28,716 nt of DNA from Candidatus Limnocylindria bacterium (GTDB lineage Bacteria > Chloroflexota > Limnocylindria > QHBO01), in the NCBI GenBank assembly GCA_051004475.1, contig JBPCKH010000118.1, forward strand, positions 1 through 28,716. The letters run 5' to 3'. The first letter of the stretch is position 1. Every line of letters begins with the position of its first letter. The notes beneath the pieces were generated by a model. The model did no database searches. It was not told where the DNA came from and saw nothing but the letters and a program-made list of their open reading frames with translations. Positions 2,510 through 5,802 of this stretch are shown piece after piece. The translations under genes were made by a program, and so were the position numbers.

Positions 2510-3823
2510 CTGACAGCCAACCCCGCCGCGGTGCCGTCCTCTGCGCTCGACGCCGAGGGTCTCGCGGAGGTCCGACGCATCGGCTCAGCCGACCTGATGG
2601 TCGGGATCCCGTCCTTCGGCAACGCTGAAACGATCGGGTACGTGGTCCGTGCGGCCACGGCCGGGATGGTCCAGTACTTCCCCGAGCTGAAGCCGATTCT
2701 CGTGAACAGCGACGGTGGCTCGCCCGACGATACGCCGCGCGTCGCCGTCACGACGGAGAGCCCGGACTACCTGGAGAAGGTGATCCTGGTCAGCCCGAAG
2801 CACAAGCTTCAGCGGATCAGCTTCACCTACCAGGGGACGAGCGGGAAGGGGACCGCTGTGCGCGCCCTTTTCGAGGTGGCGCGCGAGCTCAAGGTCAAGG
2901 CCATGGTCATGGTCGACTCCGACCTGCGCTCGATCGTGCCGGAGTGGGTCGAGCTGCTGGCGGGACCGATCCTCAAGGGAGGGTATGACTACGTAACGCC
3001 GATGTACGCGCGCTACAAGTACGACGGCACCATCACCAACAACATCAGCTATCCACTCACCCGCGCCCTGTACGGCTCCCGCATTCGACAGCCGATCGGC
3101 GGCGACTTCGGGGTCAGCGGCGACCTGGTCAGCCGCTACTTGGAGCTGGACACGTTCGATGACCTGACGGCCCGCTTCGGTATCGACGTCTGGATGACCC
3201 ACTCGGCCATCAACGAAGGCTTCGCCGTCTGCCAGGCCCGACTGGGCGCGAAGATCCACGACGCCAAGGATCCGGCCGGCGATCTCGGACCGATGTTCCG
3301 CCAAGTGGTTGGCACACTCTTCAAGCTGGCCGGGCGCTATGAAGACCGGTGGCTCCGCGTTCGAGGTTCGCATCCGATCCCCGAGTACGGGTTCGAGCGC
3401 GTCGTCGCGCCGGAGGAGATCGCCGTTAATCACGGGAAGCTGATCGACAACTTCGAAGCCGCGCGACTCACCCAGCGCGACGTGTGGGCCGGGATGCTCG
3501 GGGCGGAGCAGCTCGAGCGCGTCATGACCCTCGATCTCGAAGGCGAGCCGTCGACGTTTCACTTCAGCGCCGAGCTCTGGATCCGCTGCCTGTACGACGC
3601 GCTCGTCGCGTTCCACCGACCGGGCACCGACCGGGAGCAGCTGCTCGCCGCCCTCACGCCCCTCTACTTCGGCCGCACCGCGGGATTCATCAGCGATACG
3701 CTCGACATGACGACCGACCAGGCAGAGCGGGTCATCGACGACCAGGCGCGCCAGTTCGAGGAGCTGAAGCCCTATCTCCTGTCGCGCTGGCGCGAGATGC
3801 GCGCGGCCGGCGAGCAGGCCTGA
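2510..3823 (+). CDS. GT-A glycosyltransferase, glucosylglycerate synthase (Ggs) / mannosylglycerate synthase-like
   Basis: ADLMVGIPSFGNAETI, NSDGGSPDDT, GKGTA, DSD (DxD), DGTITNNISYPLTRALYG, IRQPIGGDFG, FGIDVWMT, HDAKDP. SD GAGGAGG at 2496-2502 precedes CTG 2510; GTG 2531 is an alternative start. Confidence 0.82.
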   Translation: MTANPAAVPSSALDAEGLAEVRRIGSADLMVGIPSFGNAETIGYVVRAATAGMVQYFPELKPILVNSDGGSPDDTPRVAVTTESPDYLEKVILVSPKHKLQRISFTYQGTSGKGTAVRALFEVARELKVKAMVMVDSDLRSIVPEWVELLAGPILKGGYDYVTPMYARYKYDGTITNNISYPLTRALYGSRIRQPIGGDFGVSGDLVSRYLELDTFDDLTARFGIDVWMTHSAINEGFAVCQARLGAKIHDAKDPAGDLGPMFRQVVGTLFKLAGRYEDRWLRVRGSHPIPEYGFERVVAPEEIAVNHGKLIDNFEAARLTQRDVWAGMLGAEQLERVMTLDLEGEPSTFHFSAELWIRCLYDALVAFHRPGTDREQLLAALTPLYFGRTAGFISDTLDMTTDQAERVIDDQARQFEELKPYLLSRWREMRAAGEQA

Positions 3824-4767
3824 TGGCTGCCGCCCGCCGCAAGACACCGTATCGAATCCTCCTGCCGCTGGCCAACCCGCGCACGGCGCGTGACCTGGTT
3901 CGCATCGGTGCCGGGGTGGCCAACGGGCGCCACACCGAGATCACGGTGCTCGGCATCGTCGAAGTGCCCGAGGGAGTGTCCCTCAGCGAGGGTGCCACGC
4001 AGGCCCGTACCTCGCGCCGTCTCCTGCAACGCGTGCTCGATGTCGGTGACGAGGAGGGCGTCGAGCTGCGAACCATGGTCCGCATCGGCCGCCGCGCCGC
4101 CGACGGGATCATCGAGGCCGTTGGCGAGGAAGAGTCCGACCTGGTCATCTTCGGATGGGGCGGGCCACCGACCGCGACGCAGAACGCGCGAGCCGACGCG
4201 GAAGCTACCGAGCGAGCATTGACCGGCCAGCACGCTCGACCCCGGCCGGTCTTCAGTCCTACCATCGATGACGTGGTGCGCGAGTCACCGTGCGACATCG
4301 CGGTCGTCAAGCAGCGCGGCCTGGAGCGCGTCGAGTCGATCCTGGTCCCGGTGCGCGGCGGCCCGCATGCCGAGCTGGCCATGCGCATCAGTCGCGACCT
4401 GGCCAAGCGGTTCAGCGCGAAGGTGGTGGTGCTGCACGTCGTCCCGAGGGGCATCGGGACCCGTGCCATCGAGCGTGAGCAGGCGGCCGTCGACGCCTTC
4501 GTGCGCGAGCACGCGGGCACGCGCCGGGCATCCGGAATGATCCGTGAGGCGTCATCGGTCCGGCAGGCGATCATGAAAGAGGCCGCGAATCACCAGCTGG
4601 TGGTGATGGGAGCGTCGGCGCATCCGACCAACGCAAGTCCGGACGGGCGGTACCTGTTCGGCACGCTTGCCGAATCGGTTGCCAGCAAGGCGAAGCCCAC
4701 GGTCATCGTGGTCAAGACCAAGCAGTCGCTGGGCCTCGCGACGTTCGATGAGTTGCGCGCCAGCTAG
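3823..4767 (+). CDS. Tandem universal stress protein (USP) domains, probably the N-terminal half of a USP-GpgS fusion
   Basis: Two USP repeats: RILLPLANP...SDLVIFGWGG...SPCDIAVVK and SILVPVRGGPHA...QLVVMGAS...PTVIVVK. ATG overlaps the upstream TGA. Ends at TAG 4765-4767, and the frame stays open afterwards. Confidence 0.88.
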   Translation: MAAARRKTPYRILLPLANPRTARDLVRIGAGVANGRHTEITVLGIVEVPEGVSLSEGATQARTSRRLLQRVLDVGDEEGVELRTMVRIGRRAADGIIEAVGEEESDLVIFGWGGPPTATQNARADAEATERALTGQHARPRPVFSPTIDDVVRESPCDIAVVKQRGLERVESILVPVRGGPHAELAMRISRDLAKRFSAKVVVLHVVPRGIGTRAIEREQAAVDAFVREHAGTRRASGMIREASSVRQAIMKEAANHQLVVMGASAHPTNASPDGRYLFGTLAESVASKAKPTVIVVKTKQSLGLATFDELRAS

Positions 4768-5802
4768 GGCACGCTCGCCCACGCCGACGCGTATGTCGAG
4801 CGCACCCGGTCCCTGCCGATCGTCGTCGACAAGTGGTTCGCCGAGAACACATTCCACGCCCACGAGTTCGCCGACATCAGGAAGCTGGTGGCGCTGAAGG
4901 AGCGGCAGAACATCACGATCAGCCTGGGGCTGCCGGCGCTCAACGAGGAGAAGACGATCGGCACCGTCATCAAGCGCGTCAAGAACGCGCTGATGGACCG
5001 GGTACCGCTGATCGACCAGATCGTTGTCATCGATTCGGACAGCGAGGATCGCACGGTCGAGATCGCCACCGACCTCGGCGTGGCGGTCCACAGGCATCCC
5101 GAGATCCTGCCGGAGACTGGAACACACCGCGGCAAGGGCGAGGCGCTCTGGAAGAGCCTGCACGTCCTGGACGGTGACATCGTGGCCTGGATCGACACCG
5201 ATATCAGCAATATCCAGCCGCGCTTCGTCTACGGTCTGCTCGGGCCTCTGCTGCGCGAGTCGAAGATCCAGTACGTCAAGGGCTTCTACCAGCGCCCGAT
5301 TCGCTCCGGCGACACCCTCCACGCGGAGGGCGGCGGCCGGGTCACCGAGCTCATGGCCCGGCCCTTGATCAACCTCTTCTTCCCGGAGCTGTCGGGCATC
5401 ATCCAGCCGCTGTCGGGAGAGTACGCCGGTCGACGGGCGCTTCTGGAGCGGATGCCGTTCTTCACCGGCTATGCGGTCGAGATCGGGCTGCTCATCGACA
5501 TCCTCGAGGCGGGCGGGCTGCCGGCGATCGGCCAGGTCGATCTCGAGCGGCGCATTCACCGCAACCAGGCCCTGCCCAACCTGTCGCAGATGTCGTACGT
5601 CATCCTCCAGGGTGCCATCCGCAAGCTCGAGGAGCGGCATCGCATCGAGCTGCTGACCGAGGTTGGTCGTGGCATGAAGCTGATCAACACGAGCAAGGAT
5701 CAGTTCAATCTCGAGGTCCGCGAGATCGGCGACGAGATCCGCCCGCCGATCATCACCATTCCGGCCTACCTCGAACGCCGCAAATCGTTGAAGAACCGAT
5801 GA
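4768..5802 (+). CDS. gpgS: Glucosyl-3-phosphoglycerate synthase domain, in frame with the upstream USP ORF
   Basis: KWFAENTFH, ISLGLPALNEEKTIG, IDSDSEDRT, GKGEALWKSL, DTD (DxD), VKGFYQRP, GGRVTELMARPLI, QPLSGEYAGRR, GYAVEIGLLID, HRNQAL. There is no in-frame ATG before the conserved N-terminal segment. Confidence 0.88.
   Translation, partial: GTLAHADAYVERTRSLPIVVDKWFAENTFHAHEFADIRKLVALKERQNITISLGLPALNEEKTIGTVIKRVKNALMDRVPLIDQIVVIDSDSEDRTVEIATDLGVAVHRHPEILPETGTHRGKGEALWKSLHVLDGDIVAWIDTDISNIQPRFVYGLLGPLLRESKIQYVKGFYQRPIRSGDTLHAEGGGRVTELMARPLINLFFPELSGIIQPLSGEYAGRRALLERMPFFTGYAVEIGLLIDILEAGGLPAIGQVDLERRIHRNQALPNLSQMSYVILQGAIRKLEERHRIELLTEVGRGMKLINTSKDQFNLEVREIGDEIRPPIITIPAYLERRKSLKNR

Follow-up and report, generated by a model that had tools for sequence, protein, structure and literature searches.

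The window analyzed here is the whole of a 28,716-nucleotide stretch (contig JBPCKH010000118.1, positions 1 to 28,716 of the forward strand, NCBI GenBank assembly GCA_051004475.1) from Candidatus Limnocylindria bacterium, of the Chloroflexota. The subject of this work is a gene in it that joins two universal-stress-protein (USP) domains to a GpgS (glucosyl-3-phosphoglycerate synthase) domain and is interrupted by an in-frame TAG at positions 4765–4767. The features of this gene are as follows.

3823–4764, plus strand: two USP domains, codons 1–314 of the fusion (Pfam PF00582)
4765–4767, plus strand: in-frame TAG, codon 315; relatives have Glu (GAG or GAA)
4768–5802, plus strand: codons 316–659 and the TGA stop, comprising a conserved connecting segment and a GT81 glucosyl-3-phosphoglycerate synthase domain (NF010496, PDB matches)
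4888–4890, plus strand: GTG, the first canonical start after the TAG, with AGGAAG at 4879–4884, only 3 nt upstream

The TAG is in frame both with ATG 3823, from which it is codon 315, and with the GpgS frame that closes at TGA 5800–5802; reading through it yields 659 codons. The earlier note on this DNA had described a USP and a GpgS open reading frame (ORF) sharing this one 659-codon frame and split only by the TAG at codon 315, and both frame reading and domain searches bear the description out. The part before the TAG matched Pfam PF00582 (Usp) at 69.5 bits against a gathering threshold of 24, in two stretches of which the best covers residues 172–298, and the part after it scored 375 bits with the NCBIfam GpgS equivalog NF010496, whose cut-off is 262, with residues 20–331 after the TAG covered. 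Searches against PDB structures with the GpgS part returned 3f1y at E 1.4e-74 (aligned from query residue 17 and subject residue 63 onward), 7pdo at E 1e-61 (from query residue 21 and subject residue 15 onward) and 7p5l at E 1e-61. The sequence does not appear to settle whether this part would use a glucosyl or a mannosyl donor, because the best PDB match, 3f1y, is named a mannosyl-3-phosphoglycerate synthase.

Comparison with related genomes demonstrated that codon 315 is a glutamate codon everywhere else. The orthologous codon is GAG in 14 and GAA in 4 of the 18 same-genus loci; Glu stands at this position in all 12 of the closest proteins, which are 91–93% identical to the window gene, and in 129 of 129 fused homologues of 618–690 aa. 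At least 120 longer homologues were listed within that same size range, mostly of 657–663 aa, and all carry Usp together with glycosyltransferase domains. Across 40 related genomes from five families of the class, the best GpgS matches uncut by contig ends lie in open frames of at least 599 aa with no internal stop. The USP half (3823–4764) is collinear with, and 91–93% identical to, the N-terminal halves of intact 659-aa fusions. The deposited sequence departs from an uninterrupted frame of about 659 codons by the TAG at codon 315, and is otherwise fully collinear and 91–93% identical over the gene. Because all orthologues carry GAG or GAA here, the USP-USP-GpgS fusion is, as judged from the aligned codons, ancestral, and TAG 4765 is by the same comparison a GAG-to-TAG change (G to T) private to this copy. 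Fusions of this USP-USP-GpgS type occur throughout Limnocylindria, and the locus is an unremarkable one of them.

The earlier note had placed codon 315 in an inter-domain linker. This does not hold in the sense of a loose connection: the relatives show hardly any variation in the segment around the codon and none at Glu315.

These results bear on the three origins that the earlier note had offered for the TAG. The two ordinary ones, a GAG-to-TAG nonsense change and a sequencing or assembly error, gain support. The third was programmed readthrough specific to this locus, which would release free USP-USP protein together with a low level of the fusion and thereby act as a control on solute synthesis. 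It has its geometry in its favor, a stop between two functional parts with no start directly after it, and nothing further. The orthologue alignment, which the note itself had proposed as a check, gave a sense codon in 18 of 18 loci and 129 of 129 proteins, all with Glu, an outcome that the note had listed among its refutations: the stop is conserved in 0 of 18 and 0 of 129, and the codon it replaces is an invariant Glu within a conserved segment. Recoding signals were likewise absent where they were sought, the 100 nt after the TAG folding no better than shuffled sequences (z -0.27) and an Rfam search of positions 3600–6200 returning nothing at E up to 1. Nor does the site have special status within its genome, which holds eleven other stray stops, described below. 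Locus-specific programmed readthrough is exceedingly improbable and can be considered effectively excluded.

Two further observations were made during this comparison. At codon 311 (Leu, position 4753), the window has TTG where 18 of 18 relatives have CTG or CTC, a private change to T lying 12 nt before the TAG; such a change is not unusual against the gene-wide rate of private changes. In addition, two relatives hold GpgS copies (G013:C1:498941–499973 and G021:C2:81228–82231) that match in many short pieces and in different frames, one of them with a TGA. Their appearance suggests broken copies or indel errors of assembly; G021 also holds an intact copy, so that the one listed is its second, and no intact copy was found in G013.

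Apart from the TAG, the fusion gene contains no second stop and no frameshift. Private codon changes, counted per copy across 15 full-length orthologues, gave a non-synonymous to synonymous ratio of 0.35 for the window gene (0.30 before the TAG and 0.41 after it), and intact orthologues ranged from 0.12 to 0.90. The pattern of codon changes indicates that normal constraint acted on the gene until very recently, or still does. A decaying pseudogene is not supported, with further lesions absent and the ratio within the range of the intact orthologues. A search for promoter-like and terminator-like sites found none, and the metagenome-assembled genome (MAG) that contains the window, which is 70% complete, yielded no second GpgS copy. 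An AlphaFold2 model of an intact orthologue, built on a 37-sequence alignment, had a mean pLDDT of 49 and a pTM of 0.31 and was too poor for use.

Translation could in principle resume after the TAG, and the options for this are narrow. The first in-frame ATG, GTG or TTG downstream is GTG 4888, at residue 41 after the TAG, in agreement with the earlier note, which had found no in-frame ATG in the interval and had warned that GpgS would be truncated if translation began at 4888. Truncation is indeed the consequence: about 21 residues within the NF010496 model coverage are lost, and the lost segment (PIVVDKWFAENTF...) also aligns to the solved GT81 enzymes 3f1y, 7pdo and 7p5l. GTG 4888 is probably the only plausible re-initiation point, and its use, which we infer only as a candidate event, would give a GpgS without its conserved N-terminal segment. 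In exact-protein look-ups, the 314-aa USP part was recorded solely from this contig and the 304-aa product of GTG 4888 had no record; therefore, no independent assembly of the TAG allele is on record. Contig scans of metagenomes and genomes gave 0 matches both for the window's own 30-mer, with base 4765 left free, and for a degenerate pattern with TAG, TAA, TGA or TGG at codon 315, and, with no positive control run for the sense codon and the window's own records perhaps masked, these zeros are weak evidence.

A real, recent and fixed nonsense mutation would leave the cell with a free 314-aa USP-USP protein and with GpgS either lost or made in small amounts, truncated, from GTG 4888. Several observations are compatible with such an event: the TAG stands in the deposited consensus, well within the 28.7-kb contig; GpgS is non-essential, and a null allele could persist; the absence of further decay would suit a very recent change; and AGGAAG lies just before GTG 4888. 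Set against these, the truncated product would lack a stretch that hardly varies and that aligns to GT81 enzymes of solved structure, and the MAG, as far as its 70% completeness allows, offers no second GpgS copy. We consider a real mutation of this kind unlikely, though the main rival to the explanation favored below, and a further point against it comes from the rest of the genome.

The source MAG (G000, in which the window is contig C118) totals 1.81 Mb over 286 contigs, at 70% completeness and 67% GC, and the source names of its closest homologues put it in Candidatus Limnocylindria. It was compared with a relative, G019 (2.69 Mb in 5 contigs), by reciprocal tblastn of ORFs filtered on GC3 (GC content at third codon positions). 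Stray in-frame stops were accepted where the flanks were conserved, as measured by flank identity, and the mismatches fell mainly at third positions, and were then subjected to a Pfam check. This survey replaced earlier ones that were too noisy, long spurious or over-extended ORFs being common at 67% GC. One of those, a search of the MAG for coding frames running on past a stop, had already shown the TAG in RNase J. In 269,466 codons compared, G000 contained 12 in-frame stops (10 TAG, 2 TAA and 0 TGA) across 11 conserved genes, listed here with the residue in the relative.

C114:82–84: TAG in 3-hydroxyacyl-CoA dehydrogenase, relative residue Q
C50:1713–1715: TAG in M20 peptidase, relative residue Y
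C161:876–878: TAG in release factor 2 (RF2), relative residue E
C29:9426–9428, minus strand: TAG in RNase J (HGHEDH motif changed to HGH*DH), relative residue E
C272:17700–17702, minus strand: TAG in aldehyde dehydrogenase, relative residue E
C26:1014–1016, minus strand: TAG in DeoC-family aldolase, relative residue E
C99:133–135 and 145–147: two TAGs in periplasmic binding protein, relative residues S and S
C163:1247–1249, minus strand: TAG in quinolinate phosphoribosyltransferase (QRPTase), relative residue Y
C144:6741–6743: TAA in deacetylase, relative residue Y
C30:1257–1259: TAA in Mur ligase, complex change
C118:4765, plus strand: TAG in USP-USP-GpgS (the window), relative residue E

In the reverse direction, 0 credible in-frame stops were found in 298,111 aligned codons of G019, a significant difference from the 12 in G000 (Fisher p 1.3e-4). 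Nine of the 12 lie within matched Pfam domains, the DeoC stop falls just beyond its domain, and the window stop falls between the Usp and GpgS domains. The TAGs in RNase J and RF2 occur in G000 alone among the 23–24 relatives with a match. Contig ends lie within 310 bp of four of the 12 stops, more than the expected 9.8% (P 0.024), and this excess points to assembly quality.

Five candidates were dropped during the survey: C13:1606 and C86:1330 lie upstream of the matched domain, and those on C44, C119 and C281 gave junk-like peptides without any Pfam match. A relaxed survey added one case only, C133:5657, which is doubtful.

Length changes were noted alongside the stops. In G019, there are about 97 places genome-wide where a G000 ORF matches in two adjacent frames, and about 14 such breaks appeared in G000 in the reverse comparison; this suggests many single-base indel errors in G019, as in an unpolished long-read assembly. 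In G000, a large regulator gene (C268:2584–4117), presumably of the MalT/LuxR-type ATPase kind by its look to the eye only, is disrupted by the loss of one base at each of two points some 267 nt apart, and G019 has an intact 584-aa ORF in its place.

The types of stop were then compared with those that random single-base changes would produce under the codon usage of the MAG. The expected proportions are 66% TAG, 18% TGA and 16% TAA, and GAG-to-TAG is the commonest single-step path to a stop, at 23.5%, a point that would also accommodate a real mutation in the window gene. The observed TAG:TGA:TAA ratio of 10:0:2 corresponds under this model to P 0.17 for at least 10 TAG and P 0.087 for no TGA, and the residues replaced (E, Q, Y and S) are the expected neighbors of TAG. 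The stop spectrum fits random single-base changes. About 7–8 of 11 single-step events were C>A/G>T against 50% expected, which we judged not significant and from which we draw no conclusion on oxidative damage. With about 2.6% of random changes giving a stop, 12 stops in 269,466 codons would imply a change rate of about 6e-4 per base.

TAG is still a working terminator in G000. It ends 24% of orthologous genes there and 28% in G019, with 50 of 81 TAG ends kept; release factor 1 (RF1) was found in G000 with its PVT and GGQ motifs; and among the 27 tRNAs found in this 70% complete genome, none has a CUA or UUA anticodon. These data bear on two explanations that reach beyond this one gene.

The first of these is strain-wide nonsense suppression, in which TAG and TAA alleles would persist in many genes, this one included, through a suppressor tRNA (amber or ochre) or through weakened termination. 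It would account for twelve stops that are all TAG or TAA and never TGA, several of them in supposedly essential genes, and the suppressor could be missing from the assembly, as the MAG lacks roughly 40% of the expected tRNA set. Arguing the other way are the anticodons of the tRNAs that were found, the intact RF1 motifs and a frequency of TAG at gene ends like that in G019. The replaced E, Q, Y and S moreover appear in the proportions expected from random hits, the lack of TGA among 12 stops is not significant, and one stop in three is at a contig end. Strain-wide suppression is therefore highly unlikely. Its milder form, a low-level amber or ochre suppressor or leaky TAG/TAA termination under which nonsense alleles survive in RF2, RNase J and Mur ligase and the window gene gives free USP-USP with some full-length fusion, we rate lower again, as extremely unlikely.

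The second is reassignment of TAG to an amino acid in the lineage, through a changed code or pyrrolysine. Ten in-frame TAGs in conserved genes would be its natural signature. The kept TAG ends and the presence of RF1 contradict it, however, as do the four different amino acids that the TAGs replace, the two TAA stops that occur besides, and the relatives, 86–93% identical in the GpgS part, that have none. Code reassignment is the least probable of all the explanations considered and is effectively excluded.

Taken together, TAG 4765 is probably either an error of the consensus or of sequencing, or else a rare allele that is not viable, one of many events scattered over the MAG. The 11 further stray stops lie in unrelated conserved genes, and therefore nothing is specific about the window site. 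A single process may have scattered single-base changes over the MAG, striking essential genes as readily as others. That process would most likely be technical, in the form of consensus errors at low depth, or would consist of rare dead alleles taken up by the assembler, because null alleles of RF2, RNase J and Mur ligase cannot be fixed in a clonal living population. The same stops count against a real nonsense mutation at 4765, since fixed nulls in those three genes are implausible and one process for all is more economical. The assembly is fragmentary and probably of low coverage. For the gene itself, the TAG is most likely no property of the living population, in which the full 659-aa protein, with Glu315, is most likely produced; we infer an artefact rather than a real mutation as the cause.

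Several points weigh against this explanation. TAG 4765 lies in the longest contig, 4.7 kb from its end and outside the error-prone end zone. By our own expectation, a short-read consensus should have fewer changes than the roughly 6e-4 per base implied here. The lack of TGA among the 12 stops leaves a little room for a TAG/TAA-specific process. The polarity of the other stops rests on the single relative G019, except in three genes that were checked against many relatives. An artefact and a real allele at 4765 are not separable from the consensus sequence alone.

The fusion gene is flanked in an operon by a GT81-like glycosyltransferase and a glycerate kinase, and the three form a conserved trio. 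The neighbors are as follows.

2396–3823, plus strand: upstream gene, a distant GT81-like glycosyltransferase paralogue of 475 aa (weak matches to NF010496 and GpgS structures)
6026–7204, plus strand: downstream gene, glycerate kinase, from ATG 6026 (Pfam Gly_kinase E 5e-126; TIGR00045 394 bits)

The upstream gene scored 47.9 bits against NF010496, below the cut-off, matched GpgS structures weakly and had no match in a Pfam search; its TGA and the fusion ATG 3823 overlap by one base. A spacer of 223 nt (5803–6025) separates the fusion gene from the glycerate kinase. Within it, a CGTGAATC-GG-CG-TTCG motif occurs in two similar copies, at about 5914–5936 and 5966–5988, with no Rfam match.

Compared with known systems, the locus resembles programmed readthrough and recoding (selenocysteine, pyrrolysine and leaky stops) in having an in-frame stop between two functional parts. 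It differs from them in that the stop is unconserved, no recoding element was found, no decoding tRNA is among the 27 found in this 70% complete genome, and the position is not unique. The closer likeness is to the sporadic premature stops of draft MAGs, which are likewise single-base, private to one assembly, scattered over genes including essential ones, random in spectrum and enriched at contig ends; the difference is that the rate of about 6e-4 per base in this MAG is above our expectation for a short-read consensus. This carries a general caution: a lone in-frame stop in a draft MAG resembled regulated readthrough, and genome-wide comparison showed it to be one of a dozen stray stops. Without read support, TAG 4765 should not be annotated as dividing two genes, as a biologically meaningful pseudogene or as a recoding site. 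Should the stops prove genuine, this strain would offer a natural example of essential genes that tolerate nonsense codons, and would merit study.

At the protein level, the catalytic domain is homologous (E 1e-59 to 1e-74) to GT81 enzymes with structures, namely the mannosyl-3-phosphoglycerate synthase (MpgS) of Rubrobacter xylanophilus (3f1y) and the GpgS enzymes of Mycolicibacterium hassiacum and M. tuberculosis (7pdo, 7p5l, 4y6n and 3e25). These share the N-terminal W-F/L-x-x-N/R-S/T segment, which in the window lies upstream of GTG 4888, but they are stand-alone enzymes of about 325–390 aa without USP domains. Within the library searched, no paper names both glucosyl-3-phosphoglycerate synthase and universal stress protein. 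The nearest counterparts are the USP-USP-GpgS fusions of Candidatus Limnocylindria (657–662 aa, e.g., MDQ3691579.1 and MEJ7801953.1), which are machine-annotated as glucosyl-3-phosphoglycerate synthase and are collinear with the window gene over its 659 codons at 91–93% identity. They share with it the start MAAARR..., the upstream GT-A paralogue and the downstream glycerate kinase, and differ in having Glu at 315, the TAG being confined to the window copy. In its intact form, the USP-USP-GpgS fusion is widespread in Limnocylindria.

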